A DNA stretch of 64,000 nt from an uncultured bacterium (lineage in GTDB: Bacteria > Bdellovibrionota_C > UBA2361 > CALJRW01), in contig CALJRW010000025.1 of assembly GCA_937976335.1 (NCBI GenBank), positions 7,103 to 71,102 on the forward strand, in the 5' to 3' direction. Below the pieces are notes generated by a model. The model did not search any database, had not been told where the DNA came from, and saw only the letters and a program-made list of their open reading frames with translations. Position 1 is the first letter of the stretch. The number at the start of each line of letters is the position of its first letter. The position numbers were made by a program, and so were the translations under genes. Below are positions 5,737 through 63,915 of the stretch, one piece after another.

Positions 5737-7380
5737 TTACAATTCAGGCGAAACAACTCTATTAAAGGTGTTAAGCTCCCATATAACTTGAAACCTTTCT
5801 AAGGACCAAATACTACCTCTAGTTAATATTAAAATTTTTTCATAAAATTCAGCTAATTGAGTATTCTCTAATAAGTTTTCCTTACTCTTTAAACTTTCTA
5901 TATAAGCAGTTGGAATTTCTTTTGTTATATGTCCAATTCGAAAATTTTTTGGCGCAATTTTTATTCTAGAAAGTAAGGGATCTGCTAAACCAACGTTATC
6001 AACTATATGAATTCCAGGGCCCGAATAAAACCCCAACAAACCAATTACTTGTTCTACAAAATAGATTTGATGTTTACCTAATCGCTTTTCTGTTTTCTTA
6101 TGTGCCCTTCGATGCCTTAGGCCAATCTTTGAAGAATAAGCTTGAATTGGCTTCTTTGTTAAATTAATTCCATATTTTTTAAGGCGTGGCAGAAGTCCAG
6201 TATATTTATAGTAAAAGGCTCTTTCATCTATCACTCCATTTTCAGTAAACATCTGTTGGCCTTTAACATCTTCTTCCCCATAATTAGAGTCTGTAGTTAG
6301 AGGAGAGTACGGATCGAAAACTAATGAGAAAAGTAATATTAGTATCGTAAAGACACTAAGAGCTTTTTCACTATAACCAGCTTTATTATATATCCTTAGA
6401 GAAGTCACAATAAAAACAAAAATTGGGCAACTTAAAAACCTACCACTCATAAAATCACCACCAACTACAATAGTCACATAAAATATATAGATAAAACTTC
6501 CTAATAAAATTAAAGCTTCAATTGTATATTTTTTTAAAACTGCTATAAAAAAAGTAGCTAGCCCTAAAATACAAAATAACGCGCTAGCTGGATCGTTTAA
6601 AAAAGAAACTCTCAGATACTCAATTCCCATAGAAAATTTAACGCTTGAACTTATATCTAAAGAATACAACTTAGCGAAGGCTGTGTTAGGAAAAGGTGTA
6701 CCATAATATATAGTAGAGAAAATAAGCCAACAAAAAGCTGGAGAAATTGATAAAAATAGTTTTCCAAAATAAGCAATATAAGCATTCTGAATCTTTGATA
6801 AATCTCTAATCAATATATAAACAAGTAACGGCAGAGAAAATAATAGCAAATCAATACGATTTACAAAGAGTAAGGAGCTTAGAAAGAATAATTTCAAGGT
6901 ATTTATTCTTACAAAACTTAAGCGTAGAAAAATACCTAGTAGTAAATAACTTAAAGGATTTTCTAAGCCAGAAGTTGAATAGTCTACAAAAGCTTTTGAG
7001 CAGATTAATAGACTAACTAAGACAAAGTTTCGTAAAAATCTTCCATTACTCTCTAAAAACAGTAAGACCGCACTCGAGCTCAAAATCAAACTAAGAATTA
7101 TATTACTTAAGTAAATCTCTTTTGTAAAAAAATAAATAATTGTATTTACTATGAGCCACAATGGATGAGTATAAGACTGAACTCTTTCTTCAACATTCCA
7201 TCGGAGCCCGTAACCATTTATAAAGTTATCTATGGTTCTAAATGAAATATATGCATCATCACAAAGCCATGCACTTTTGATCAAAATGGCTAGAAGAAAA
7301 AGTAGTAATAAAATTTTGCCATATTTATCTAACCTGCTTCTAATGGCATCTAGAAAAGATATAGGCTGAGCTATAATCAT
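5737..7380 (-). CDS. Polytopic membrane protein, putative GT-C fold glycosyltransferase (ArnT/PMT-like)
   Basis: 547-aa ORF with >10 predicted TM helices. The first periplasmic loop has CDDAYISFR, resembling the acidic DD/DE motif of GT-C (GT39/GT83) transferases. It has a large soluble C-terminal domain. Confidence 0.4.
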   Translation of the reverse strand: MIIAQPISFLDAIRSRLDKYGKILLLLFLLAILIKSAWLCDDAYISFRTIDNFINGYGLRWNVEERVQSYTHPLWLIVNTIIYFFTKEIYLSNIILSLILSSSAVLLFLESNGRFLRNFVLVSLLICSKAFVDYSTSGLENPLSYLLLGIFLRLSFVRINTLKLFFLSSLLFVNRIDLLLFSLPLLVYILIRDLSKIQNAYIAYFGKLFLSISPAFCWLIFSTIYYGTPFPNTAFAKLYSLDISSSVKFSMGIEYLRVSFLNDPASALFCILGLATFFIAVLKKYTIEALILLGSFIYIFYVTIVVGGDFMSGRFLSCPIFVFIVTSLRIYNKAGYSEKALSVFTILILLFSLVFDPYSPLTTDSNYGEEDVKGQQMFTENGVIDERAFYYKYTGLLPRLKKYGINLTKKPIQAYSSKIGLRHRRAHKKTEKRLGKHQIYFVEQVIGLLGFYSGPGIHIVDNVGLADPLLSRIKIAPKNFRIGHITKEIPTAYIESLKSKENLLENTQLAEFYEKILILTRGSIWSLERFQVIWELNTFNRVVSPEL

Positions 7381-11118: not shown

Positions 11119-11173
11119 GGATCTTTAAAAAAAATAGTGTTTGTCACAAAATAGGTTTTCAAAAAAAGATTAT

Positions 11174-11755
11174 TTAGACATTACTTTTTGGGAAAACTAT
11201 ACTTAACTCTTTAAATATTTCTTTTGCTACTTCAGAAGCAGAAAGCTTTGAAACATACAGCTCCTTAACGTCACAATTTTTAGGTTTGAAAATCTCACTT
11301 TCACGAACATTTTTAACTGCAAATTTAGGGTCTATGGACTTAGGAAATAGTTTTCTTTCAGGAGATTGAATTCTTCTTACTAGCTCATCCTCTTCAATCT
11401 TTAACAAACAAGTAAGAAATCGTGCTTTTCTTTTTTGAGCTAATTCTTTAACATTATTAAAAAGAATTTTATCTGTCTCTTTTCCTTCTCTCAGATCGTT
11501 TGTAAAAATAAAACTCATTTCGGACGGAGACAACTTAGTAATAGTATCAATAACAACATTTCTAATAATTCTTGTGCTCTCCCAAATTTCATCAGGCAAA
11601 CTACCCATTCCATCAGCACCTATTAAATCAAACAGAACATTATTTACTCTATGACTATCTACTATTTTAAATTCTGAAATTTTAGCTAATTCTTTAGCAA
11701 TAGTAAGCTTTCCAGTACCAGGAAAAGCAAGTAAATATATTATCGTATTTTTCAT
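11174..11755 (-). CDS. P-loop NTPase (small kinase-like ATP-binding protein)
   Basis: N-terminal Walker A LAFPGTGKLTIAKEL. 193 aa, in the size range of shikimate/chloramphenicol-phosphotransferase-like kinases. The C-terminal 8 codons lie inside a copy of the short hairpin repeat (11161-11210). Confidence 0.6.
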   Translation of the reverse strand: MKNTIIYLLAFPGTGKLTIAKELAKISEFKIVDSHRVNNVLFDLIGADGMGSLPDEIWESTRIIRNVVIDTITKLSPSEMSFIFTNDLREGKETDKILFNNVKELAQKRKARFLTCLLKIEEDELVRRIQSPERKLFPKSIDPKFAVKNVRESEIFKPKNCDVKELYVSKLSASEVAKEIFKELSIVFPKSNV

Positions 11756-13084: not shown

Positions 13085-13190
13085 AAACAAATAGTTATCC
13101 CAAAATCAATAACTTACATGGAAATCGAAGGTTTTCAAGAAAGAATTATTCGTAAATTACTTTTTGGGATAACTATAGTTTCTAACTAGA
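13085..13190. repeat. Hairpin repeat family B copy, plus upstream partner arm forming a long-range inverted repeat
   Basis: AAATAGTTATCCCAAAAT (13090-13107) is the reverse complement of TTTTTGGGATAACTATAG (13163-13180). The downstream arm belongs to the family-B core GTTTTCAAGAAAGAATTATTCGTAAATTACTTTTTGGGATAACTATA. Confidence 0.65.
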
Positions 13191-25823: not shown

Positions 25824-26960
25824 ATGCTCTCATTTAAGATTAAACCAAAAACTATACTACTTCTTCGAGAACTAACAAAAAGACTTACAAAAACTCAAAT
25901 TTTAATTGAATCACTGGAAGCTCAAGAGTTGGAATTCATTAAGCGTAATGCCCTTATTAGTAATATTGGAGCATCTACTAGGATTGAAAATGCAGTGCTC
26001 ACTAACTCTGAAATTGATTGGGTAGATACTGCCTTAACAAGTGACGGAAAAACAACATCTTTTGAAAATCAAAGAGAGGCAATTCAAGACAAGTTATCAA
26101 AAGACAAAGAGCGAAGTATTGATGAAGTTGTAGGTTGTAGAGCAATGCTACAATTAATTAACCAGCAAGCAAACAACCTTTTTCCACTTACAGAGGTGAC
26201 CTTGCGTGGGCTTCACAAGGAGTTACTTAAGTATCACGCCCCTGACAACTACCATAGTGGCGGTTACAAGCAAGTTCCTAATAGTGTTGTTCGCAAGGTG
26301 AAAATGTCAGGTTGTCCTGTAAAAGAATATCCTGTTCTTACAACTTCCCAACCAGGACTCGAAACTGAAGAAGCTATGACAGCTTTAGTTGGCTGGTATA
26401 ATAATACCCTTAAAGTTCATCCTTGGACTATTGCTGTAGCGGTAGAGTTTGTATTTAGGTTCTTAGCTATTCATCCATTTCAGGATGGTAATGGTAGGGT
26501 GGGACGTGGCTTATTTTATTTAACACTATTGCAAAGCCCTGATGATAGCATTTCTAGTACGATTTCTTACTTAGCTATTGATAGATATGTAGAAGTAGAA
26601 AGAGAGGAATATTATGCCGTTCTTAGTAGGTGCTCAGATGGTAAATTTATAGCTGACCCTACTAAGTATGCTTATGAGCATTTTTTAAATTTTATGCTTA
26701 AGGTGATCGATTGCTCGATTGACGATGTTGAGCTTTATAGGGATAAATTTAAGCGTTTAAATAGTCTTACTACCTCACAACGAGTTGTCCTAACTTGTTT
26801 TAAAGAGCAACCTGAGCTTAGATTACAAGCTAAAAATATCGTTGAGTATACCAATCTACCTCGAACAACTATCAACGATGCATTAAAAGCTTTGATAAAA
26901 AATAAATTTATTCAAAAGTATGGGCGAGGTGCTGACGTTAAGTATCAGCTGCTTTTTTGA
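25824..26960 (+). CDS. fic: Fic family protein (AMPylase/Fido domain) with C-terminal winged-helix domain
   Basis: Canonical Fic motif HPFQDGNGRVGR (HPFx[D/E]GNGR). ~200-aa N-terminal region. C-terminal HTH-like LPRTTINDALKALIKNKFI. Confidence 0.88.
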   Translation: MLSFKIKPKTILLLRELTKRLTKTQILIESLEAQELEFIKRNALISNIGASTRIENAVLTNSEIDWVDTALTSDGKTTSFENQREAIQDKLSKDKERSIDEVVGCRAMLQLINQQANNLFPLTEVTLRGLHKELLKYHAPDNYHSGGYKQVPNSVVRKVKMSGCPVKEYPVLTTSQPGLETEEAMTALVGWYNNTLKVHPWTIAVAVEFVFRFLAIHPFQDGNGRVGRGLFYLTLLQSPDDSISSTISYLAIDRYVEVEREEYYAVLSRCSDGKFIADPTKYAYEHFLNFMLKVIDCSIDDVELYRDKFKRLNSLTTSQRVVLTCFKEQPELRLQAKNIVEYTNLPRTTINDALKALIKNKFIQKYGRGADVKYQLLF

Positions 26961-27260
26961 ACTACTCTAGGAAATAAGTTTAGTTAGGAATTATGCCTAG
27001 CAATATATTTCCTGAATCCTGGTCAAGTCTTGGTAAATCCTAGTGCCAGTAACATAATAAGTCTAAATTTTCACAAATTCTACTCACTTTAGCCGAAGTT
27101 TGCTTGAAAAACGAAAAGCTGCTACTTGCTACCCTTCTCAATATGAATGTTTGCAAAATTTTCTACAAAATTACCTTGAGTTCCCCACTTACTTCACAGC
27201 ACTTATTCTCGAAAATGCTAAATAACTAGCCTCTCTGCTTTTATAAGATTTACTACTTGA

Positions 27261-27367
27261 ATATGTGCTTATTACGGCAAAAAATGGCTTTGCCATTATT
27301 TTCTCGCCCAACAAATCATTTAGTTTTCCCGCTTAAAAGCGGAAAAACCAAATGTCGTTGGGTATAT
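27261..27367 (+). repeat. MITE-A, 3'-half copy (truncated)
   Basis: TATGTGCTTATTACGGCAAAAAATGGCTTTGCCATTATTTTCTCGCCCAACAAATCATTTAGTTTTCCCGCTTAAAAGCGGAAAAACCAAATGTCGTTGGGTATA matches the 3' halves of the copies at 38.1, 45.4, 55.1(rc) and 63.8 kb. Confidence 0.8.
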
Positions 27368-27895
27368 CTAGGAGGAAAGCAAAAAAGATTCAATAATAGC
27401 ACTATTCGTAATCCCACGATTCACGGCCATTTTATTTAATTTACTGATAGCCTCAAGACTAAGGGTAAATGATTTAACTTTTTTGTGTTTATTGATGGGT
27501 TTTACTCTTTTGTCAGGAATTTCGAAATTAGCCCAATACTTCATTTTTGAGCATTCAATGCCCTTATATTTAAGTGGTAATTCGCTGCCATTTTTAATCT
27601 TTTCAATAATAGTTTGCAGTTCTTTTGGCATCTCTTCAATTCCAATAAAGTTGTTTTGAAAGTGAAGCAAGGCAGCTGGGAAAACTTCCAAAACTCTAGG
27701 CTCTACATTGCGGGCTACCCATAGAACATCTTTGATTCTTAAAATAACCTTATGTTTTGATTTTATTTTAGGATATTTTAAATAACCCTTTGCTATCAAG
27801 AATCCTAGAGTATTTTCTGCTCGTTCAGAGTTGAGATTTTTTAAGAATAGCTTTTGTAGTTCTTTGGTTTTTTTTATTATTTTATTGTTAGTCAT
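27368..27895 (-). CDS. Hypothetical protein with C-terminal ribbon-helix-helix (CopG/MetJ-like) DNA-binding domain; downstream gene of a two-gene module
   Basis: C-terminal KSFTLSLEAISKLNKMAVNRGITNSAIIESFL has the beta-strand/helix/helix RHH pattern. It starts at the nucleotide immediately after the stop of the upstream 163-aa gene. Confidence 0.55.
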   Translation of the reverse strand: MTNNKIIKKTKELQKLFLKNLNSERAENTLGFLIAKGYLKYPKIKSKHKVILRIKDVLWVARNVEPRVLEVFPAALLHFQNNFIGIEEMPKELQTIIEKIKNGSELPLKYKGIECSKMKYWANFEIPDKRVKPINKHKKVKSFTLSLEAISKLNKMAVNRGITNSAIIESFLLSS

Positions 27896-28387
27896 TTATA
27901 TTATCTCTTCTAATGAAATTTTATACTTTAAAAAGAGCTTTTCAAGCTCTACAGAGAATTCAGCTATAGCCTGTATAAGTAATTGTTTATTTTTTTCAGG
28001 TGCAAATTTAGCTTTTGAAACTAAAGTTGAAAATGAATCAATGACATGTACTGTAATCTTCTTAGAAGAATAATATTTCCAAAACTTAGCTTCTGTTGGA
28101 ATCCATATTTCTTTACTTAGTTCGTCATAGTCGTAGCCATGTGATCTTAGGATTTCTTTGAAATGAAATTTAATTGTAGAATCACCTTCAAGGAGCGCAT
28201 CTAAATCGTTAGTAGCAATTATATTTAACTTTTTATTTATGCTTTCATCTAATAATAGACTTGCTTGGCCGAGAACTTTGATTTGAATTTTCCCAGTTTT
28301 AGGTAGGCCATCTTGACAAAGTTGTTGATCGAGTTTGTTTACTATGCTTTCAAGCTCTTTTAGTATTTTATCTAAATCTTCTTTCAT
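27896..28387 (-). CDS. Hypothetical protein with possible minimal nucleotidyltransferase-like motif; upstream gene of a two-gene module (candidate toxin/abortive-infection component)
   Basis: VLGQASLLLDESINKKLNIIATNDLDALLEG resembles the G[GS]x(n)...DxD core of MNT/AbiEii-type NTases (weak, by eye). It is translationally abutted to the RHH gene. An AT-rich palindrome lies just upstream. Confidence 0.45.
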   Translation of the reverse strand: MKEDLDKILKELESIVNKLDQQLCQDGLPKTGKIQIKVLGQASLLLDESINKKLNIIATNDLDALLEGDSTIKFHFKEILRSHGYDYDELSKEIWIPTEAKFWKYYSSKKITVHVIDSFSTLVSKAKFAPEKNKQLLIQAIAEFSVELEKLFLKYKISLEEII

Positions 28388-28391
28388 AATA

Positions 28392-28432
28392 CTATATTAT
28401 AGTATTATATATTAATATAATATACTAATAAA
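28392..28432 (-). promoter_or_regulatory. AT-rich near-perfect palindrome immediately upstream of the 163-aa gene (candidate operator/promoter)
   Basis: TAGTATTATATATTAATATAATATACTA reads nearly the same on both strands. It lies 5-45 nt upstream of the start codon at 28387 (minus strand). Confidence 0.4.
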
Positions 28433-28562
28433 CTATTCTTTATTAACTTTCTGAAAATATTGAAGAAAAACCTATAAATTCGCAATCTTTGCTGCTTACT
28501 AGGTTCATTATTCTTATTTAGCTAACTGGATTAGCTCTTCTTGCTTATGGATTGTAAATTGG

Positions 28563-28748
28563 TAGCTAACTGCTACCAGCAACATTTTTATTTATTTTAC
28601 TCTACTGCTTTGCGTGAGTAACATTCTTCCGTTGTTCTTAGTTTTAAATTAAGAATTTGTTTATATCGACAAAAATTTTGAAAAGTTTCTTAATTTTTGA
28701 TTTTTTTTAGATTATTTCTGAAATAAATGTTGCTGGCACCAGTTAGTC
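28563..28748 (+). repeat. MITE-C copy 1 (~186 bp, with ~25-bp terminal inverted repeats)
   Basis: Starts TAGCTAACTGCTACCAGCAACATTT and ends AAATGTTGCTGGCACCAGTTAGTC, which are reverse complements. It is >90% identical to 30319-30507. Confidence 0.85.
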
Positions 28749-28922
28749 CACTCCTTTTCGGTGTCAAGAATTGTGACGCAACGTATATTAATTAGGTGCT
28801 AAGATACCTTTTCGGTGTCTTTTTTTATGACGCATATCGTCTCTAATTTTTTTTTGATTAAAAATACATATTTGTTAAAATAATATAAGTTAAAATTTTT
28901 CAAAATTATCTAGATATATCTT

Positions 28923-30245
28923 ATGTCATTGCAGGTTGAATATAAAAAATGCAATATTATTGATGCGACGAAGCTATTTCGAAAAAATGCCGAAATTTCA
29001 TTTAATGTTCCTGGCCGATCGCCAATTGAAATCGTAAAAAATTTAGGTGTTTTACAAGCTGATGTTGCAGAGGCTCTTGGGTTAAAATGTACTGAACGAG
29101 TTAGGCAGCTACTTGACGGAAAAAACGGTAGATTTCCATTGGAAAGAAACATAATTCGTGTGGCAACAGCTATTAAAGAACTTTGTTCTGCAAAAGTTAG
29201 AAATGGAGAGATTCTTTATCGCAAGGAAAAGAGTCAAATAGAGGAAGAAAGAAAAAAAAGTCTTTTTTTTCGTGAAATCTTTGGAAGTAATATTGATTCA
29301 ATTTTAAAACATTTTGAAGGTAAGAGTTTTAAAGAAACTTGCTTAGATCTAATTTCAAGAATTTATTTAAGTAAACGTAAGTTTTTAAGTGATCTTCAAA
29401 AATTTTCATCAGATTTTAGAAGTGATTTTTCTATTTTTACGGCAAGTGATGAAGAAATTATAACAATAGCGAAACTTTTAAAATCAGATCTAAGATTTTT
29501 TCATGAAAATCAAATTCTCTTAAAATCAAGCAAAGAAAAAACTAATGCAATTAAAAAACTTGTTTTAAACTTTTTTCTGGAGCAGGTAGGGTGGATAGGT
29601 GAAGATAATCAAGGCATTGAAAAAGATATGCCTGATGATATATTTCTAGGGTTAGAGTCCGGAGAGATACTTAAGGTTTTGCGTAATTCAGTCGGTCTTA
29701 TTCAACCTGAAATTGGAGAAGCAATAAACTTATCAAAAAAAAGGATAGCGCAAGAGTTACAAGAGCATTATAAGAAACCTTTTTTGGCTTACAGTATCGA
29801 AGATTTTGAAGCGCTAGTAGATAAAACTTTTGAGAAACATGAACTTTCAGAAATTAATTCAGGTTTGCAGTTAGCGATTATATTTGAAAAATACAATTTA
29901 ACTTCACTTAGTAGAAGAGAGAATACAGCCTCTCCCCTTCAGCTTATTGAAAGAAGTATGGTTATTGCAAATATGCTAAGGCCTAAATTGTTTTTCTTAA
30001 AATTTAAAGGCTTGCTTCAAGATAAAATTGAAGAAAGTATTAAAAGAGTAAAAACTGGGAAAGCAGAGAAGACGAAAACATTGGTCCGTCCTTGGTCAGC
30101 TAAACTAGAAAATGAGTTTAAAGAGTGGATTGCTTTGGGAGAGGAGCGTCAAATTAGAGAACGTCAAAAGTATGGCAAGGATTCGATGGTAGATCCAGGG
30201 GAGATAGTTGTTGGGGAGAAATATCAGTTTGCCTTGGAAGACTAA
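28923..30245 (+). CDS. Hypothetical 440-aa protein with two XRE-like helix-turn-helix motifs, flanked by direct MITE-C copies
   Basis: IEIVKNLGVLQADVAEALGLKCTERVRQLLDGKNG and EILKVLRNSVGLIQPEIGEAINLSKKRIAQELQ both fit HTH_3-like patterns. The rest is Lys/Glu-rich helical sequence with no recognisable catalytic motif. Confidence 0.6.
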   Translation: MSLQVEYKKCNIIDATKLFRKNAEISFNVPGRSPIEIVKNLGVLQADVAEALGLKCTERVRQLLDGKNGRFPLERNIIRVATAIKELCSAKVRNGEILYRKEKSQIEEERKKSLFFREIFGSNIDSILKHFEGKSFKETCLDLISRIYLSKRKFLSDLQKFSSDFRSDFSIFTASDEEIITIAKLLKSDLRFFHENQILLKSSKEKTNAIKKLVLNFFLEQVGWIGEDNQGIEKDMPDDIFLGLESGEILKVLRNSVGLIQPEIGEAINLSKKRIAQELQEHYKKPFLAYSIEDFEALVDKTFEKHELSEINSGLQLAIIFEKYNLTSLSRRENTASPLQLIERSMVIANMLRPKLFFLKFKGLLQDKIEESIKRVKTGKAEKTKTLVRPWSAKLENEFKEWIALGEERQIRERQKYGKDSMVDPGEIVVGEKYQFALED

Positions 30246-30318
30246 ATAGCAGATGTCTGTTAAACCTCAAATCGATCTAGAAAGGGCATATAAATTTTTA
30301 AAAAGTTAATTATGCAAA

Positions 30319-30507
30319 GTAGCTAACTGCTGCCAGCAACATTTTTATTTATTTTACTCTACTGCTTTGCGTGAGTAACATTCTTCCGTTGTTCTTAGTT
30401 TTAAATTCAGAATTTGTGTATATCAACAAAAATTCTGAAAAGTTTCTTAATTTTTGATTTTTTTTTTAGATTCTTTCTGAAATAAATGTTGCTGGCACCA
30501 GTTAGTC
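30319..30507 (+). repeat. MITE-C copy 2 (same orientation as copy 1)
   Basis: Near-identical to 28563-28748, including the TIRs TAGCTAACTGCTGCCAGCAACATTT / AAATGTTGCTGGCACCAGTTAGTC. Confidence 0.85.
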
Positions 30508-30519
30508 TACTATAGCTTT

Positions 30520-30846
30520 CTACAAAAAACTAGTCATATGAACAACATTCTGATTAGCTAGAGCTTTAACACCCAATTCAGTAACACTCCAAATTCTTGA
30601 GGTAAAATCTCCTATAGGATGAGGAGAAACATACTTATGACCTTCTAAAATAAATAAAGACCTCTGAACATCATGTTCATCTTTTCCAAGAGCAAGGGCT
30701 AGTTCATCAATTCTATAAGGCCTAGCATTTTTAGCACTAGTAGCCCCTTCAGCCATTTTTGTTAATACAACTACTTGATTTTGGTACCTTTCGTTCTCTT
30801 CTTCCGTTAATTTTGACTTATCTTCAGCTGAATTTTCACCTATCAT
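30520..30846 (-). CDS. Hypothetical small protein (108 aa), possible winged-helix DNA-binding fold
   Basis: YRIDELALALGKDEHDVQRSLFILEGHKYV resembles the recognition helix plus wing of wHTH regulators. Its stop codon abuts MITE-C copy 2. Confidence 0.45.
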   Translation of the reverse strand: MIGENSAEDKSKLTEEENERYQNQVVVLTKMAEGATSAKNARPYRIDELALALGKDEHDVQRSLFILEGHKYVSPHPIGDFTSRIWSVTELGVKALANQNVVHMTSFL

Positions 30847-31021
30847 AATAGTTTATATCCTCTCATTTGTAAGCATATTAGCTTTAACTCAAGAATTATA
30901 TCAAATTAAGGAGTTTAAGCAAATATAGCTGTTTTTACCTACTCACTCTCAAACTATAGTTATAACTTACTAAATCACAATAACTTTAAATCTTTCATAA
31001 CATTAAAGAAGAAAATATTAG

Positions 31022-32533
31022 ATGAAATTTTTTGGCAAATTACAGAATTTAGAAAATCTTGGTCGAAGCTCTAAAGTTAAGATGACCAGAAGGTCTGCCC
31101 TTCTTTTCGGTCTTGCGACTTTTGGTGTTGGCTGTGTTGCAGAAAAAAAGAAATCTCCTTTGAATAAGAACTCCAATAGCCAAGCTAGTGGAAAGTTTAG
31201 AGCTCTAGTAAAACCAATTATTGCTAGAGCAGGCTTGTTAAAATCTCAATTGAAAGATATTTCTTTGAGTGCACTTGAAGAATTCAAAAATCAAGGACAT
31301 AAACTTACACTATTTCCTGTAACAGAACTTTCAAATAGAATTGTTTTATCTTTAAAATTAAATGAAAATTTTAGAAGAATCGATCCATCAGGTAATATTT
31401 ATCTAGAAAAAATCAAAATTCTTATCAAAACATCAAAGCAACTTGGCGAAGATGAGCTATCACAAAAGTTAGAAAAATTGCTTAATCTTGAAAAATATTT
31501 CGATAGAAATATTAAACCGGATATAATAAAAAAGAGAACTAACACCGAAGCTTATCTTAAGAAAGAAGAGCGGTATACCACTGAAAAAAGTAATCTTTTA
31601 ACTGATATCGCTAATAATCATGGTATAAGTATAACTTACCTTGCAGACGCCATACCTATTACAGGAAAATTTATACAAGAAGGAAAAACTGGGCAGTATC
31701 AAGCTTTTATTGTTCATTCTTTAGATAAAGAAGAATATTTAGGTTTAGAAGGATTAAATCTTGATGGTGGGCTTACATCTGTTTTTTTAAATAGCGCCCC
31801 AGCACAAAATGCCTCAAAGTTCTTTAGCTCAGTGATTGCAAACGAATTTTCGCATACATACTTTAGAAGAGTTTGGGAAAAATTTTGCAATTTACATTTA
31901 GAAAGAATTGATTTTTCAAAAATAAAGCTGTTTAGAAAAGCTGGCAAAAAGAAAACACAATTTTTCAAACGTGCTCTTGAACCTCGCACCACAGGCGAGC
32001 TATCTGAGCTATTTTCTGATTCATGGTCAAGTCAAATAAATCCAAGAGAACTTTCAAGAATAGGAATTAACAGCCTTAGTATGCTACTAAATAGTGGAGT
32101 AAGAAGCTCAATCAGTCAAAGTAACTTCTCTCCTGCTACAGTAGATCACGCTAATTATTATTGTGGCGACAGAAATTCTAATTATCGTTTAACACATGTA
32201 GTGTTTTTGCAAACAATGCACGAATGTTTTCTAGCAGATTCTAATTTAAAAGGTTATGAAAATATTTTATCTCTAGTAAATGCTAAAGAAGAAGCGATAG
32301 TTAAAATCTTAAAGCAAATTAATGAAACTCGTAAAAGTAAAAATCCTAATGACAAATCTAAAATACATCTTCTAGATATAGAGTTACATGAAAAGTGCCA
32401 ATTAGAGGATTTTTACTTAGAGATTATAAATAAAATCCCAGAAAGGTATCTACTTGAGTTTCAAAAAGCATTAAAACACTATGAAGATGAATATACTAAT
32501 GTGCTTAGACAACATAAAAATCAACTAAACTAA
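31022..32533 (+). CDS. Putative Tat-exported lipoprotein, function unknown
   Basis: Twin-arginine-like signal MTRRSALLFGLATFGVGC with a lipobox Cys. The real start may be the ATG at ~31082. The remaining ~480 aa are unrecognised. Confidence 0.6.
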   Translation: MKFFGKLQNLENLGRSSKVKMTRRSALLFGLATFGVGCVAEKKKSPLNKNSNSQASGKFRALVKPIIARAGLLKSQLKDISLSALEEFKNQGHKLTLFPVTELSNRIVLSLKLNENFRRIDPSGNIYLEKIKILIKTSKQLGEDELSQKLEKLLNLEKYFDRNIKPDIIKKRTNTEAYLKKEERYTTEKSNLLTDIANNHGISITYLADAIPITGKFIQEGKTGQYQAFIVHSLDKEEYLGLEGLNLDGGLTSVFLNSAPAQNASKFFSSVIANEFSHTYFRRVWEKFCNLHLERIDFSKIKLFRKAGKKKTQFFKRALEPRTTGELSELFSDSWSSQINPRELSRIGINSLSMLLNSGVRSSISQSNFSPATVDHANYYCGDRNSNYRLTHVVFLQTMHECFLADSNLKGYENILSLVNAKEEAIVKILKQINETRKSKNPNDKSKIHLLDIELHEKCQLEDFYLEIINKIPERYLLEFQKALKHYEDEYTNVLRQHKNQLN

Positions 32534-32579
32534 ATTAATTTTCTTTAACTTATTACCATATGATACAGAGCCTAACACC

Positions 32580-34793
32580 TCAAACTCCCCTAGCAATTCT
32601 CTTCTTCCTCCCCTTCATATCTTGATAAATTGGTAATTCAATAACAAATTTTGCTCCTCCCATCTCACTATCAAAGACCTTAATTTCTCCGTTATGCTCA
32701 GAAACAATGGTACTAACTATAGCCAATCCTAAACCTGTACCTGAAGATTCAGTAGTAAAATATGGGTCAAAAATTTGAGACTTATCATTATCAGAAATTC
32801 CATAGCCTGAATCAACTACCTCCATTCTTAACAAATTTTGACTTTCTATTTCAGTTTTTAAGAAAACTTTAGAGTTACAATCTTCTGATTTTTGGCGCTT
32901 ACGTACAGAAATTAATGCATTATCTAGCAAATTAATAAATAAACGTCTAATTTGCTCTCTATCAATCTCTACTTCTTTAACTCGATTATCAGCAATAAAG
33001 TGAAAGCTTACATCAGTATTTGTTTCTGCATATGAATCAATTATTTGAGATAGTAAAATATTTATATCTTCTTTCTTAAATTCAGCTTTAGGCATTCTTG
33101 CAAAGCGAGAGAATTCATTTGCTAATCTATTAATTGACTCAACATGTTCTAAAATTGTTTGGCTTGACTCGATAAAAACTTGATTTGATTTAGTATCTTC
33201 AGCGTTCTTTTCAATTCTTTGTGCACATAGCTTAATTGGTGTAAGAGGATTCTTAATTTCATGAGCAATTCTCCTAGCAACTTCACTCCAAACATTCATT
33301 TCTTGAGCTTTTTTAAGTTCAGTAACATCATCAAATAAAAGTACAGCTCCAACTACTTCTCCTTGTACGTTTGTTAGTTGACCACTTGTGCAAACAACAT
33401 TTCTTGAAATGCCTTCAGCCTTAAATGAAACCTGCTTTTCAAGAACTAAATTTGGTCTTTCTTGATCATCTAGAACTCTTCTAACTAGCTTTTCTACTTG
33501 CGAATATACATCTGAATTAACTATATCCTCAAGATCTTGTCCAAGCGTATTAGATATTTTATTAATAGAAAAAAGCGAAGTTGCTGCGCGATTTGCAGAA
33601 GTGATTTTTTCATTTTTATCTACACTAATTACAGCAATTGCTAAATTAGATAAAATTGTTTCAGTATAAGATCTCCTTCTTTCAACTTCATTTCTAGATT
33701 GTTTTAAATCGGCTGTCATTTGGTTAAAAGATCTTATTAGAACTGAAACTTCATCATCTCCTGTAGGTCGAACATAGTAATCTAAATTTCCCCTAGCAAC
33801 AGCTTGCGTGCCTTCAGCAAGTCTTTGTATAGGAACAGAAATTTCTTTTGCTGTATAGAATCCAAACCAAATTGCTGAAAATAAAAGAAGACCCGTAATC
33901 ATTGCTAGAGTTAGTAGATAACTTGATTTAATTGGACTTTTAAACAACTTAACTTGTTCATATTCTTTGAAAGCATTACTAACAACTCTTAAAGAATCTG
34001 CAATATCTTTAGATAGCAACTTTGTTGTGATTAAAATTAAGCTTTGATCATCAAGCCTAACTCTGGTAAATGCACTTAAGTAATTTTTATTAGGCTTATT
34101 ATCATAACTAACTCCCTCTTTTTGAGAAGCAAGTTTAATAATTTTATTTTCTTCAATTTCTGTTCTTTCAACTTCAGTTCCAAGTGTTAGAAAATTATCT
34201 TTATTTGATTTAAAAATTTGAACCCCAGAAATATCATGATTTAAAATAGCTTTCTCTAAATATTGAGAAAGGATAATTTTTTCTCTATAAACTAATGGTT
34301 TCGTTTCAATCTCTACTTTAATCATTTCAGTAACTTTAGCAGTTTTAACTTTTAGAAGTTCGTAATGATTTCTACCAATACTCATTGCACTATGCACTGC
34401 TGTTTCAACTTGATTACTAAACCAATCATCTAAGGCACGTGAAAGGAGTCCGCTTGCTAGAACAAATACAATAATTGTCGGAACCAAAGTAAGTCCTACA
34501 AAAGCAGTAACTAAACGAAGCCTAAGCTTAGAACCTAAGATTCTACGCCTTCTATCAAAAATAAGCTTAACTACATTTCGTCCTACCAAAAAAGCTAATA
34601 GAATTAGAAGAACTAAGTTAAAATTGACAATTGAGAAAATGAGAAGATTATTACCAACATCCTTATACTCTGGCCTATTCCAATAAATTGCCAAAGAAAC
34701 AAGAAAGGCTATTGAAAAGAAAATTGAAGCTCTAAGAACATAGCCACTCTTCTTCCACCATTTAATAATACTTAGTTTATTGATTCCTAACAC
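32580..34793 (-). CDS. NtrY-like sensor histidine kinase (multi-TM N-terminus, HAMP, PAS, HisKA, HATPase_c)
   Basis: 4 N-terminal TM helices, a HAMP-like region, a PAS-like segment, H-box AHEIKNPLTPI, N/G boxes LDNALISV...DSGYGI...GTGLGLAI. 737 aa. Confidence 0.8.
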   Translation of the reverse strand: MLGINKLSIIKWWKKSGYVLRASIFFSIAFLVSLAIYWNRPEYKDVGNNLLIFSIVNFNLVLLILLAFLVGRNVVKLIFDRRRRILGSKLRLRLVTAFVGLTLVPTIIVFVLASGLLSRALDDWFSNQVETAVHSAMSIGRNHYELLKVKTAKVTEMIKVEIETKPLVYREKIILSQYLEKAILNHDISGVQIFKSNKDNFLTLGTEVERTEIEENKIIKLASQKEGVSYDNKPNKNYLSAFTRVRLDDQSLILITTKLLSKDIADSLRVVSNAFKEYEQVKLFKSPIKSSYLLTLAMITGLLLFSAIWFGFYTAKEISVPIQRLAEGTQAVARGNLDYYVRPTGDDEVSVLIRSFNQMTADLKQSRNEVERRRSYTETILSNLAIAVISVDKNEKITSANRAATSLFSINKISNTLGQDLEDIVNSDVYSQVEKLVRRVLDDQERPNLVLEKQVSFKAEGISRNVVCTSGQLTNVQGEVVGAVLLFDDVTELKKAQEMNVWSEVARRIAHEIKNPLTPIKLCAQRIEKNAEDTKSNQVFIESSQTILEHVESINRLANEFSRFARMPKAEFKKEDINILLSQIIDSYAETNTDVSFHFIADNRVKEVEIDREQIRRLFINLLDNALISVRKRQKSEDCNSKVFLKTEIESQNLLRMEVVDSGYGISDNDKSQIFDPYFTTESSGTGLGLAIVSTIVSEHNGEIKVFDSEMGGAKFVIELPIYQDMKGRKKRIARGV

Positions 34794-34837
34794 TTTGTAA
34801 TATTACACTTTTTTGAGAAGCTTTTCCAATTATAGTT

Positions 34838-34962
34838 TAAACCTGAATTCGGGATAAAAAGCGTTACGAAAAAATTAAGATGCTGAAATATTTGAACGAA
34901 AAAATAAAAATTAGATTGCAGCAGTAGCTTTCTTATCCCAAATTCAGGTTTAAAGCGAAAAA
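34838..34962. repeat. Inverted-repeat-bounded 125-bp element (hairpin/MITE-like)
   Basis: GTTTAAACCTGAATTCGGGATAA ... TTATCCCAAATTCAGGTTTAAAGC: ~22-nt arms that are reverse complements, enclosing ~75 nt of AT-rich sequence. The arm motif CCTGAATTCAGG also occurs at 63902-63913. Confidence 0.7.
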
Positions 34963-37953: not shown

Positions 37954-38065
37954 TTAGCTCCTATTGGGTGATATTCAACTAACTAAAACTATTACATATT
38001 TTGAAAAAATGCAATTTTAATTACAATGCTAGGAAATAAAATTTATTTTGAAAAATATTAGTTAC

Positions 38066-38252
38066 ATAGTGCTAGACATTCGGTTTTTCCGTTTTTTTTT
38101 CTTGCAATTTTTGCATAGCATAAATTCAGTTTTATTTGTTCGAGCAGTATATGTGTTTATTACGGCAAAAAATGGCTCCGCCATTATTTTGCTCGCCCAA
38201 CAAATCATTTAGTTTTCCCGCTTGAAAGTGGAAAAACCAAATGACGACAGAT
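38066..38252 (+). repeat. MITE-A copy (full-length, ~190 bp)
   Basis: Begins ...TAGTGCTAGACATTCGGTTTTTCCG and ends CGCTTGAAAGTGGAAAAACCAAATGACGACAGATATA. The internal sequence TTGCAATTTTTGCATAGCATAAATTCAGTTTTATTTGTTCGAGCAGTATATGTG...TTACGGCAAAAAATGGCTCCGCCATTATTTTGCTCGCCCAACAAATCATTTAGTTTTCCCGCTTGAAAG is shared with the other copies. Confidence 0.85.
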
Positions 38253-38387
38253 ATATAAATTTTATAAGCTTTCCCTTACACTTTAATGTTTCTTATTAAG
38301 TCGATTACATTTTTTAGAAAAAAAGTACTAAATTTATACCTTGGATTTATCGAAGAAAGTATTTATTAAAATTTAAGAAATTCGAAA

Positions 38388-39950: not shown

Positions 39951-40194
39951 GGTTTATTTATCTCAAATTTATCAAATTAGCATTTCTTACGTAAAGTTAT
40001 GAAGTATTTTAGAAATTTGTTGCTTTTGGAGCAGTAAATTATCAGTTTTCTTTCATTACCTCACTTAATAGCCTAATATTATTAGCTATTTACGTAGTGA
40101 GTGAGTTAATTTTGATTCTTAGTTTTTATCACTACTGTCCCAAACGGCATTCACTTATGCGTATCTGCTTTTAATCATTAAAGAATCGCGAAAT

Positions 40195-40375
40195 TTTAAA
40201 GACTAAGTTTTAGTCTTTTTAGGATTCATGTTAGAGCTGCCGTAAGCTTTGTGCCAGGCAGAGCTCACTTTAAGCCTGATGAGATACCTACAGACTTAAA
40301 TCTACCTAAAAGTAAGTGGACAGCTTCTCTTGGAAACTAACTGATGCCAGTTACTTCCACCACAACAAAGATAAC
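40195..40375. ncRNA. Candidate structured non-coding element (GC-richer segment with two compensatory stems) in a 480-bp divergent intergenic region
   Basis: GAGCTGCC-N15-GGCAGAGCTC and AAGTAAGTGG-N~40-CCAGTTACTT pairings. Local GC ~45-48%, against ~30% nearby. No ORF. Confidence 0.25.
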
Positions 40376-40435
40376 AGTAAACAAAACAAAACTTTTGTCG
40401 ATTACTTTATTGAACAGTTTTAAAAGGCAAAATTT

Positions 40436-43703: not shown

Positions 43704-43811
43704 TTTTTTACAAATCATAAAAAATACTTAGTGCCATTGTTAAACTACTAGTGTATCTTAATAGTCGAGTTCGCTCTGAGAAAAAAGAATTTTGAATCAA
43801 TTTCGGAAAAA

Positions 43812-45277: not shown

Positions 45278-45340
45278 ATTGAGATGATAGGCTCAATTAG
45301 CAGATAATTTTGATAAACTACAGTTTTTCTGTATATACTA

Positions 45341-45532
45341 AAACATATTAGGTTTTACTGTTTTTTTCTTAAAATTTATGCATAGCATAAATTCAGATTT
45401 ATTTGTTCGAGCAGTATATGTGCTTATTGCGGCAAAAAATGGCTCCACCATTATTTTGCTCGCCCAACAAATCATTTACTTTTCCCGCTTGAAAGCGGTA
45501 AAACCAAATGTCGTTGGGTATAATTGATTGTA
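45341..45532 (+). repeat. MITE-A copy (full-length)
   Basis: GTATATACTAAAACATATTAGGTTTTACTG ... AGCGGTAAAACCAAATGTCGTTGGGTATA. Terminal segments are mutually reverse complementary (~27 nt). Confidence 0.85.
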
Positions 45533-54950: not shown

Positions 54951-55030
54951 AACTAATTATAAAAGATAAGTTATCTTTAAGCAATAATAGTAAAATCAAT
55001 GTAGTCTTTATATACGATAGCCCAGTAAGA

Positions 55031-55232
55031 TATACTCAATGACATTTGGTTTTTCCGCTTTTAAGCGGGAAAACTAAATGATTTGTTGGGCGAGCAAAAT
55101 AATGGCGGAGCCATTTTTTGCCGTAATAAGCACTTATACTGCTCGAACAAAAAAAACTGAATTTATGCTATGCATAAATTTCAAGAAAAAAAACGGTAAA
55201 ACCAAATGTCGAGCAGTATATACTCAACGACA
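55031..55232 (-). repeat. MITE-A copy (full-length, inverted orientation relative to the other copies)
   Basis: The reverse complement of 55031-55232 reads TCGTTGAGTATATACTGCTCGACATTTGGTTTTACCG...GCTTAAAAGCGGAAAAACCAAATGTCATTGAGTAT, colinear with the other copies. The small + strand ORF 55078-55293 lies inside it and is rejected. Confidence 0.85.
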
Positions 55233-57506: not shown

Positions 57507-57617
57507 AACCTAAACTATAGAAATAAATAGATCAAGAGCTAGGAAGAATGAATATTTTGTAATTTAGAACCAAAATATAATGTCTTGCATCTAACATTTA
57601 AGAAGACTAAAAAATTA

Positions 57618-57806
57618 GTCTTTATGGGTTTGTCGGAAAATAGAATTCGTCGCGAGAAAAAAGATTTTTGAGTTAAAGGTTGAAAAAATGAAAATAAAAA
57701 ACGCAGGCGTATCAGTAGGATACCTTGAGTATTTTTCTTTTCATTTTTTTAATCTTTAGCCAAAAAGCTTTTTTTGTAGCAGAATTCTATTTTCCGACAG
57801 ACCCTT
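57618..57806. repeat. Inverted-repeat-bounded ~190-bp element (MITE-like) with nested internal palindrome
   Basis: GGGTTTGTCGGAAAATAGAATTC ... GAATTCTATTTTCCGACAGACCC (23-nt arms, 1 mismatch). Internal GAAAAAATGAAAATAAAAA / TTTTTCTTTTCATTTTTTT. The 5' arm region AATAGAATTCGTCGCGAGAAAAAA recurs at 1125-1148. Confidence 0.75.
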
Positions 57807-57846
57807 TATGTCGGATTTATGAAGGTTAAAAAATCGAGAGGCGTTA

Positions 57847-63074: not shown

Positions 63075-63521
63075 ATGGTATTCTTAGATCTTATACAAGC
63101 TAATGAAATTATGCCTTTGTTAATAGCTACCGGATTAGGCAGTCTCATTGGCTTAGAGCGTGAAATTGCAGGAAAAGACCCAAGCCTTAGAACATTTTCT
63201 CTTATCTGTCTTGGCAGTTGCTTATTCACTATAATGTCTACAGAAGCAGCCTTAGGGGTGCCAAATGCTGATCCTGGACGAATAGGCGCACAACTAGTCT
63301 CAGGTATTGGCTTTCTTGGAGCTGGTGCTATTTTTAGATCCAAGGATGGGGTTGCAGGACTTACCACAGCAGCCTTGATATGGATGACGGCAGCTATTGG
63401 TATGAGTGTTGGATTTGGAAAGTATAAAACCGCAATTACGAGTACTATAATTGCTTTAGCCATTCTTACTAGTCTTAGTTTAGTGCATAAAATTTTTCGT
63501 GCTTTACGATCTGATAAATGA
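63075..63521 (+). CDS. mgtC: MgtC/SapB family membrane protein
   Basis: ATGLGSLIGLEREIAGK...GAQLVSGIGFLGAGAIFR...GLTTAALIWMTAAIGMSVG is the conserved MgtC N-terminal domain. 148 aa. Confidence 0.82.
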   Translation: MVFLDLIQANEIMPLLIATGLGSLIGLEREIAGKDPSLRTFSLICLGSCLFTIMSTEAALGVPNADPGRIGAQLVSGIGFLGAGAIFRSKDGVAGLTTAALIWMTAAIGMSVGFGKYKTAITSTIIALAILTSLSLVHKIFRALRSDK

Positions 63522-63522
63522 A

Positions 63523-63832
63523 TATACTGCGCGACATTAGGTTTTACCGTTTTTTTTCTTGCAATTTGTGCAGAGCATAAATTCAGTTTTATTTGTTTGA
63601 GCAGTATATACTAAAACACATTAGGTTTTTCCGCTTTTTTGTCAAAGACTAAAGCCTAAACTTTGTGTTTTAGTATATGTGCTTATATTGGTTCGATTTG
63701 GCTAAAGCCAAAGTCTCACTCATCACCAAACTTTTTGAGTTTTTAGGAAAAACTCAAAATCGGTGACTATATGTGCTTATTAAGGCAAAAAATAGCTTCG
63801 CCATTGTTTTGCTCGCCCAACAAATCATCTAT
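63523..63832 (+). repeat. MITE-A composite copy: one unit interrupted by a nested ~150-bp insertion, 3' end truncated
   Basis: 5' part AATATACTGCGCGACATTAGGTTTTACCG...GTTTGAGCAGTATATA. The insert begins again with CTAAAACACATTAGGTTTTTCCG and contains the IR TATATACTAAAACACA / TGTGTTTTAGTATATG. The original unit then resumes with GTGCTTATTAAGGCAAAAAATAGCTTCGCCATTGTTTTGCTCGCCCAACAAATCATC. Confidence 0.75.
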
Positions 63833-63839
63833 AGAAAGT

Positions 63840-63915
63840 ACAAAAAGTAATTTCCGAAAAAAAGAATTATTCGGAAATTACTTTTTGGGATAAATATAAA
63901 CCTGAATTCAGGTTA
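63840..63915. repeat. Hairpin repeat family B copy (perfect 17-bp inverted repeat) adjacent to a CCTGAATTCAGG palindrome
   Basis: AAAAAGTAATTTCCGAA aaaaagaattat TTCGGAAATTACTTTTT GGGATAAATATA. Related copies at 11161-11210 and 13131-13190 share AGAATTATTCG-AAATTACTTTTTGGGATAACTATA. Confidence 0.75.

Follow-up and report, generated by a model that had tools for sequence, protein, structure and literature searches.

Two direct repeats of ~190 bp, each with its own inverted ends, flank a single orphan gene of 440 codons (hereafter, ORF440) in an A+T-rich, Bdellovibrionota/Oligoflexia-like genome, of which the 64-kb stretch analyzed here is referred to as the window. The repeat unit is probably a MITE-type repeat. 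The fuller explanation, in which it is a non-coding MITE belonging to one of several intergenic families and happens to have two direct copies around ORF440, has in our judgment an even chance of being right, and it is rather doubtful that the pair ever moved the gene. The repeat pair is a mobile-element candidate of ordinary appearance and unproven status. Its present value is mainly descriptive, in that several families of ~190-bp hairpin-ended intergenic repeats absent from databases occur here and an orphan gene sits between recombination-prone direct repeats. If mobile, the pair would provide a chromosomal case, beyond plasmids and resistance genes, in which small non-coding repeats have captured a regulatory gene and moved it, and an example from a poorly sampled lineage resembling predatory bacteria.

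Anatomy of the repeat units

The repeats are located at 28562-28752 (copy 1, + strand, 191 bp, GC 28%) and 30319-30511 (copy 2, + strand, 193 bp, GC 30%), and share ~96% identity, with seven substitutions and a single 2-nt indel within a T run. The initial annotation had reported two direct copies of ~190 bp, >90% identical, at 28563-28748 and 30319-30507; the alignment agrees on the pair and its location and shifts the right edges, as the similarity extends 4-5 nt farther. Given the ~4% divergence between the copies, any duplication was not recent. Both units are non-coding with an A+T-rich core (GC 28-30%), and the longest ORF touching either is ≤26 aa. Between the end of copy 2 and the stop codon of a conserved gene on the opposite strand (30520-30846, - strand) there are 8 nt.

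The unit ends have the sequence CTAACTGSTRCCAGCAACATTT and read (A)GTAG(A)CTAACTG...CATTT. Both units carry the 22-nt arm CTAACTG[C/G]T[A/G]CCAGCAACATTT, and the arms of copy 1 (CTAACTGCTACCAGCAACATTT at 28566-28587 and AAATGTTGCTGGCACCAGTTAG at 28725-28746, both given on the + strand) are complementary at 20 of 22 positions, those of copy 2 (CTAACTGCTGCCAGCAACATTT at 30323-30344, + strand, and its partner at 30484-30505, + strand) at 21 of 22. Re-alignment in this way recovered, at a length of 22 nt, the terminal inverted repeats of ~25 bp previously proposed for each copy. The outermost arms (28566-28587 and 30484-30505) also pair with each other (20/22 complementary) and give the 1.95-kb segment as a whole its inverted ends. 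Only these four arms matched the arm sequence in the 64 kb, with 0 expected from shuffles. The stem of copy 2 reaches 26 pairs in three successive blocks of 5, 7 and 14 bp; a 1-nt bulge separates the first two blocks, and a C-C mismatch precedes the 14 perfect pairs. The RNA fold of copy 1 has a predicted energy of -53 kcal/mol (z -7.1), and both units fold with z between -6 and -8 relative to shuffles. Searches of the units against Rfam gave only noise, at gathering and permissive thresholds alike.

In size, in its inverted ends, in its A+T-rich core without coding capacity and in its strong fold, the unit agrees with a MITE. Bacterial MITEs are about 50-500 bp long, have inverted ends of at least 10-15 bp and lack a transposase or coding capacity, all of which applies to the units; a flanking target-site duplication of 2-10 bp, also typical of MITEs, does not.

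ORF440 and its upstream region

Apart from an antisense shadow ORF, the two copies enclose just ORF440 (28923-30245, + strand) and the spacer upstream of it, and the earlier statement that only this gene and its promoter region lie there holds once the shadow is set aside. ORF440 is a real gene, and its codon usage resembles that of the host. Its coding score was +0.38 bits/codon in frame, versus -0.9 and -1.05 in the other frames; the expectation for a chance ORF was 1e-10. The predicted protein is basic (pI 8.9) and an orphan, as a word-index search, a full phmmer search of 1.84 billion representatives, and searches of Pfam, PHROGs, NCBIfam, PADLOC and PDB found nothing except ORF440 itself. 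There is no paralogue in the 64-kb window and no internal repeat between the two halves of the protein. AlphaFold2 returned unusable models, nearly all helix, with pLDDT 35 for the whole protein and 43 for aa 20-105.

The two HTH motifs previously assigned to the protein have no significant profile match in Pfam (fragments included), NCBIfam or PHROG. Sub-threshold XRE-type hints were obtained at both places (~aa 36-84 and 244-297), namely TIGR03070 (E 0.11), PHROG 686 (E 0.14), and the PDB entries 2a6c (E 1.1) and 3mlf (E 0.53). A "double-HTH" label is a plausible guess. The suggestion of a DNA-targeting defence factor found no support, with PADLOC giving no match. ORF440 may be a DNA-binding protein particular to this lineage, with a pair of XRE-like HTH segments.

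Its own upstream region holds two exact copies of a 28-nt motif, CCTTTTCGGTGTC-N8-TGACGCA (2 matches, 0.01 expected), in agreement with the duplicated motif described before. The first (28753-28780, + strand) directly follows repeat copy 1; within it is an imperfect dyad, GTGTC-N9-GACGC. The second (28807-28834, + strand) lies 54 bp downstream of the first and overlaps a terminator-like hairpin with a T run (28801-28821). ORF440 might act on both of these dyad-containing motifs. The best promoter-like site (28854-28881, + strand; TTGATT-16-TAAAAT with TG) is a consensus match only, and the number of such sites upstream of the gene was not above shuffle expectation. One exact match to the motif pattern (20 specified bases) was obtained in L006, a G+C-rich phage contig, where it falls within an ORF; it was dismissed as chance.

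Genomic setting and searches for mobility

Target-site duplications were absent at copy 1, at copy 2, at the outer edges of the composite (where the initial annotation had proposed looking for them) and at any plausible boundary. Copy 1 is immediately flanked by attg and cctt, and copy 2 by caaa and atag; no 5-6-bp direct repeats were found outside the outermost ends, with ...taaattg on the left and atagctt... on the right. The 64 kb contain no parent IS, transposase or integrase. The earlier interpretation as a MITE-bounded cassette is partly supported: it finds support in the anatomy of the unit, in the direct pair around one gene and in the other repeat families of the window (below), and none in target-site duplications, in a parent IS or transposase within 64 kb or in further copies of the unit.

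The window holds no third copy of the unit. Scans of GTDB species genomes, JGI metagenomes and IMG/VR for the exact end pattern gave 0 matches, 0 matches were likewise obtained with a core pattern and with a relaxed two-arm pattern, and BLASTN of the unit against plasmids and phages gave no match. Six-frame peptides of the unit, intended to catch ORFs running through other copies, retrieved nothing from 5.8 billion protein clusters. A third copy could be read from Logan L005, which ends 4 nt past the prediction of a two-copy graph; this candidate was rejected as the contigs of that run also break in ordinary genes.

At least two other families of small inverted repeats occur in the window, and all of their copies are intergenic. 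One has 31-33-bp inverted ends separated by 126-127 nt (~190 bp overall), with full copies at 38064-38256, 45331-45523 and 55028-55221, and fragments at 27260-27369 and 63520-63831; its similarity to the ORF440-flanking unit was not significant (z ≤2.2). Another, at 57612-57818, has 57-nt arms. Families of the same architecture indicate that such elements populate this genome, and their presence raises the prior for a MITE and makes two copies in neighboring spacers less surprising. With ~50 spacers in the window, we estimated the chance of such neighboring copies at ~2-4%, which is low but not compelling, because the case was picked out by the initial annotation.

A conserved T2SS operon on one side and ntrY-ruvBA on the other delimit the lineage-specific zone in which the repeat pair is located; the corresponding zone of a distant relative is much shorter. 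The gene at 30520-30846 is inverted in orientation relative to the relatives. The synteny comparison involves distant relatives only, the nearest NtrY homologue being 48% identical.

Origin of the pair, rival explanations and known systems

If the units are MITEs, their 22-bp ends would be bound by a transposase that acts in trans and is encoded at another place in the genome. The pair could have arisen by two separate insertions in neighboring spacers, or a circle composed of one unit and ORF440 could have entered a resident unit by homologous recombination. Recombination of this kind between the 96%-identical direct repeats might also delete the 1,757-bp segment or release it as a circle, and the outermost inverted ends would permit the whole 1.95 kb to travel as a composite. 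A bolder version, in which unit and ORF440 form a self-contained mobile or excisable module and the HTH-only protein recognizes the units or the 28-nt motifs and brings about the excision of a 1.76-kb circle as well as its integration, is very improbable in our estimate; if true, it would represent a new class of recombinase or transposase, or a cassette system outside integrons.

Among the alternatives, the one given the most weight, though still improbable, is a local duplication without mobility, in which one local rearrangement duplicated the unit, itself a structured element of the spacer such as a transcript-end hairpin following the gene at 30520-30846. The missing target-site duplications, the restriction to two adjacent copies and the lack of a nearby transposase are consistent with this, as is the position of copy 2, which starts, in the direction of that conserved core gene, 8 nt past its stop codon; the inverted orientation of the gene relative to relatives shows that a local rearrangement took place. 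A stem of 22-26 bp around a ~137-nt loop is nevertheless atypical for a terminator, no Rfam family was matched, and the dispersal of families of identical architecture over the window argues for a spreading mechanism. We give a small chance to an assembly ambiguity, whereby just one unit lies in the chromosome between 28387 and 30520, and the assembler threaded into the contig a 1.76-kb circle of unit plus ORF440 that exists apart from it, extrachromosomally or in excised form. The copies share an identical stretch of 75 nt (28576-28650), across which short k-mers cannot phase the flanks; independent Logan contigs end within the units and none spans one (L002 breaks 34 nt inside copy 2), and ORF440 is missing from the Logan assembly record while its neighbors are present. 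Reads of 100-150 nt, however, would bridge 75 nt, the two copies differ in sequence, and the Logan contigs of run ERR9287621 are short throughout (1.3-4.4 kb), which is a mundane cause for both the breaks and the missing ORF.

Two further alternatives remain. In one, which we rate as no likelier than the assembly ambiguity, the unit is an attC-like or other site for a site-specific recombinase, and unit plus ORF440 is a cassette that can be excised and inserted. The direct orientation of the units around a single orphan ORF and the interruption of the stem by one mismatch and one bulged base would suit this, and AGCTAAC and GTTAGTC in the unit ends each agree at 6 of 7 positions with the attC R-box consensus (RYYYAAC / GTTRRRY). 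The 64 kb have no integrase and two sites only, though, the unit, at 186-193 bp, exceeds the typical attC length, the stem does not have the attC layout of an R box, an unpaired spacer and an L box with canonical extrahelical bases, and ORF440 has its own upstream region of 170 nt with promoter-like sites, unlike promoterless cassettes. Least probable of all, on a par with the self-contained module, is an autonomous IS-like element, i.e., a 1.95-kb transposon in which ORF440 is a new transposase or recombinase binding the ends via its HTH segments. In its size, its lone ORF and its outer inverted ends of 22 bp, the segment is built like an IS, and the protein is basic with a possible N-terminal HTH; on the other hand, the protein matches no transposase or recombinase family, its models are almost purely helical with very low confidence, and it has no homologues, unlike active IS families, which as a rule are widespread and multi-copy. 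In addition, the full 190-bp ends are direct rather than inverted repeats, and a target-site duplication is absent.

Returning to the MITE interpretation, the closest known analogues are the MITE-bounded composites TIME-COMP and IMU. In these, as in units bounded by IS101 or MITESen1, two non-coding inverted-repeat elements of 200-290 bp bound a short cargo (PMC13367494; PMC3184786), and the ORF440 segment likewise has two copies of a miniature element bounding its cargo. TIME-COMP and IMU composites have Tn3-type ends and 5-6-bp flanking duplications, are mostly plasmid-borne, carry resistance genes and in some cases were moved in trans, whereas the ORF440 pair is chromosomal, has an orphan cargo and is without duplications or a transposase in 64 kb. 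Tn3-type ends start with GGGG, and the inverted repeats of the Tn3 family are ~38 bp; the units have neither this length nor a GGGG start.

Integron cassettes (attC) resemble the segment in having a lone orphan ORF followed by an imperfect palindromic site, in direct orientation and with AAC/GTT termini; the ORF440 pair differs by the lack of an integrase in 64 kb, of an array and of canonical extrahelical bases, by its atypical length and by a cargo with its own upstream region. In mobile insertion cassettes such as MIC231 and the qnrD mic, a transposase-less passenger gene lies within ~24-bp inverted ends in a unit of 1.5-2 kb (PMC3913671). The inverted ends of those cassettes are simple and usually accompanied by a target duplication, whereas each end of the ORF440 segment is a complete two-armed element of 190 bp.

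As a single unit, the repeat is similar to classical bacterial MITEs such as Chunjie, Correia/CREE of Neisseria, RUP and ERIC, which are intergenic, 100-235 bp long, with inverted ends of ~20-26 bp, A+T-rich cores and stable long stem-loops (PMC3184786). These families have tens to hundreds of copies and usually target duplications (9 bp in Chunjie), in contrast to the two copies in 64 kb and the missing duplication here. The Chunjie MITE of Geobacter is comparable in size, with 21-bp ends and an A+T-rich composition (PMC3184786). Directly oriented MITE-gene-MITE structures of 1.9 kb do exist, and the integration of a circle consisting of a MITE and a gene has been proposed for them (PMC13367494).

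Architecture of the repeat pair

A repeat search and MAFFT alignment placed the two directly repeated copies of the unit at 28562-28752 (copy 1, 191 bp) and 30319-30511 (copy 2, 193 bp). The copies were ~96% identical: a T run differed in length by 2 nt, and there were seven substitutions. Apart from one substitution, all of these changes fell in the right-hand half of the unit, and a 75-nt stretch was common to both copies without any difference. Each copy started with CTAACTGCT[A/G]CCAGCAACATTT and finished with a near-complement of it, forming 22-nt arms; those of copy 1 were complementary at 20/22 positions and those of copy 2 at 21/22. The two near-identical repeats and the inverted repeat at the ends of each, as described in the initial annotation, were thus borne out. 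So was the claim that only a 440-aa ORF and its upstream region lie between the copies: we found the ORF (28923-30245, + strand; hereafter, ORF440), 170 nt of upstream spacer and nothing else.

In copy 2 the stem continued outward, its paired stretches of 5, 7 and 14 bp separated first by a bulged base and then by a C-C mismatch. The fold stability of the units was well above that of shuffled controls on both strands (z -6 to -8), their G+C content was 28-30%, and they held no ORF longer than 26 codons. A search of the 64-kb window allowing three mismatches matched the arms at these four sites only, where shuffles expect none, and the outermost arms of the whole segment were complementary at 20/22 positions. 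No target duplications were found at the pair. The end patterns of the unit, exact or relaxed, had no match in GTDB genomes, JGI metagenomes or IMG/VR, nor did the unit by BLASTN against plasmids and phages, or its six-frame peptides against 5.8 billion protein clusters.

Two short resemblances to the arms were seen elsewhere in the window. The sequence AGCTAACTGG at 28519-28528, 34 nt left of copy 1, is the same as the first bases of the arm and is a chance-level 10-mer. In the long spacer 39951-40435, a small hairpin AACTAACTGATGCCAGTTACTT (40336-40352) looks like a collapsed version of the arms' outer 7-bp box (CTAACTG...CAGTTAG), closed by a 4-nt loop. Its match to the unit, 13/14 positions, is at chance level (E-value ~2), and the hairpin could be either a footprint or a coincidence.

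The enclosed gene and its upstream spacer

ORF440 is a real gene. Its codon score was +0.38 bits per codon in frame (-0.9 and -1.05 in other frames), resembling the scores of its neighbors and of the Pfam-supported genes in the window, and the chance expectation of so long an open frame in the window composition is ~1e-10. Its codon use and G+C content were host-like, indicating that it was not acquired recently from a donor of different composition. A word-index search of 5.8 billion clusters and a full phmmer scan of 1.84 billion representatives each matched ORF440 itself alone. It had no match at threshold in Pfam, PHROGs, NCBIfam or PADLOC, no internal repeat was found, and no paralogue was detected in the window.

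The two HTH motifs initially annotated in ORF440 were not established at any of these thresholds, but the weak matches at both places (~aa 36-84 and 244-297) were all to HTH families, and no weak match fell outside these segments. They included PHROG 686 (aa 40-67, E 0.14), the Rv2175c wHTH (E 0.14), the HipB-like TIGR03070 (aa 247-276, E 0.11), and the PDB entries 2a6c (XRE-type HTH, E 1.1) and 3mlf (XRE regulator, E 0.53). It is reasonable to infer that ORF440 is a DNA-binding protein with two XRE-like HTH segments. Single-sequence AlphaFold2 models of the whole protein and of aa 20-105 were unusable (pLDDT 35 and 43).

The proposed duplication of a motif in the promoter region was confirmed: CCTTTTCGGTGTC-N8-TGACGCA occurs twice in the upstream spacer without mismatch, at a spacing of 54 bp, and the first occurrence directly adjoins the end of copy 1. 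Each contains an imperfect dyad, GTGTC-N9-GACGC, and the second overlaps a terminator-like hairpin and T run. The motifs may be operators, or they may form an attenuator. The pattern (20 specified bases) was also matched exactly at 7132-7159 of a G+C-rich viral contig (IMGVR_UViG_3300035181_002369), within an ORF; this match was rejected as chance and as unrelated to the window.

A proposed composite-like segment and the alternatives

We favor the reading that the unit belongs to the MITE type of repeats and that its two copies together make up a composite-like segment, enclosing a gene that is lineage-specific and probably codes for a DNA-binding protein. Judging from this anatomy and from published analogues, the direct repeats would make the 1,757-bp segment prone to looping out by homologous recombination, the looped-out segment could re-integrate at any resident unit copy, and the outer arms would permit movement as one unit if a matching transposase exists. 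Directly oriented units of 1.9 kb bounded by MITESen1 or IS101 offer a parallel, for which integration of a circle of the MITE and its gene has been proposed (PMC13367494); IMU and Chunjie (PMC3184786) and mobile insertion cassettes (PMC3913671) are also cited as analogues. The arrangement is like that of MITE-bounded composites (TIME-COMP, IMU), but Tn3-type ends and flanking duplications are absent here. Because these two features define the named families, we describe the pair as similar to these families without assigning it to one; the segment resembles miniature inverted-repeat elements, a known class, arranged like a MITE-bounded composite. For the composite-transposon-like cassette initially proposed, support was partial: the anatomy of the pair was confirmed, whereas target duplications were lacking and no transposase or integrase was encoded across the 64 kb.

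These two absences, the restriction to two adjacent copies and their ~4% divergence count against the composite-like reading. A rival to it is that a structured spacer was duplicated locally in a single event. Another is an attC-like or other recombination-site cassette, since the termini AGCTAAC and GTTAGTC each agree at 6/7 positions with the R-box consensus; against this, the 64 kb held no integrase and no array, the canonical extrahelical bases are missing, and the cargo possesses its own upstream region. A third rival would make the segment an autonomous element and ORF440 its transposase, of a new kind; against this, ORF440 matched no transposase and had no other copy in the sequences searched.

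The assembly may also have joined into the chromosome a 1.76-kb circle that exists separately, and the 75 nt without difference between copies leave room for such an error. Independent Logan contigs from ERR9287621, the run of the source contig, stop within the units: one (L002, window 30478-34869) includes 34 nt of copy 2, up to precisely the point where a two-copy k=31 graph is forced to branch, and another (L005, window 27339-28609) ends 48 nt into copy 1, 4 nt beyond the graph prediction. Because neither runs across a whole unit, these contigs do not independently confirm the two-copy arrangement. Contigs of this run were short everywhere (L007, for example, at 2.3 kb, terminates within genes), so we gave no further meaning to the break points or to the absence of ORF440 from the Logan records; the latter and the end point of L005 probably reflect general fragmentation of that assembly.

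Genomic neighborhood and other repeat families

The window is chromosomal, with a type II secretion operon (13.4 to 25.6 kb, + strand), genes for an NtrY-like kinase, DUF4390, RuvB, RuvA and YebC (32.6 to 38 kb, - strand), and many housekeeping genes. Homologues of the NtrY-like kinase (the best 48% identical) were named Oligoflexia, Bdellovibrionales or Deltaproteobacteria, and no close relative was present among GTDB species genomes. A distant relative (L004) has the secretion operon, a 103-aa gene, FBPase and ntrY next to one another, whereas in the window ~7 kb separates operon and ntrY, occupied by a SoFic-like Fic protein, a two-gene operon, the repeat-gene-repeat segment, a 108-aa gene and a 503-aa orphan. 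Of these, the 108-aa gene (30520-30846, - strand), whose stop codon lies 8 nt from copy 2, encodes a conserved small protein; it is 47-56% identical to its 103-aa counterparts next to ntrY in two distant relatives (L003 6426-6737; L004 13222-13533) and is inverted relative to them, indicating that the region has undergone rearrangement. Together with the ~7 kb of content, this places the segment in a lineage-specific, rearranged zone.

The Fic-domain protein (25824-26960, + strand) has a C-terminal winged-helix domain and matched the PADLOC SoFic defense model (E 1.2e-31) and Pfam Fic (E 3.5e-12), which suggests that the zone is a small accessory or defense islet. The tightly abutting orphan operon on the - strand encodes a 175-aa protein (27368-27895) with weak C-terminal ribbon-helix-helix/antitoxin-like hints (PHROG 7325, E 0.006; BrnA, E 0.13) and a 163-aa protein (27896-28387) whose weak match to Mrr_cat_2 hints at a nuclease (E 0.019); the two are possibly a toxin-antitoxin-like pair.

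A whole-window repeat scan revealed further families, all intergenic. The second family is unrelated to the unit (global alignment z <= 2.2) and alike in architecture, with a total length of ~190 bp and inverted ends of 31-33 bp (TATATAC..GACATTTGGTTTTtCCG) separated by 126-127 nt. Three full copies (38064-38256, +; 45331-45523, +; 55028-55221, -) and three fragments (27260-27369, 63520-63640 and 63768-63831) were present, with no obvious target duplications. The first fragment lies in the same island as the unit pair, 1.2 kb left of copy 1, and contains a hairpin (27317-27354) resembling a bidirectional terminator. The third family comprises a 207-bp unit (57612-57818), whose 57-nt inverted arms are 72% complementary and 93 nt apart, and two solo sequences resembling its arms (1106-1154 and 43745-43793). 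A 52-nt direct repeat occurs three times (11153-11204, 13129-13180 and 63850-63901; 69-83% identity to the reference copy). The genome is thus densely populated with miniature hairpin-ended repeats, which raises the prior for the unit being one more such family and makes it less striking that neighboring spacers each contain a copy.
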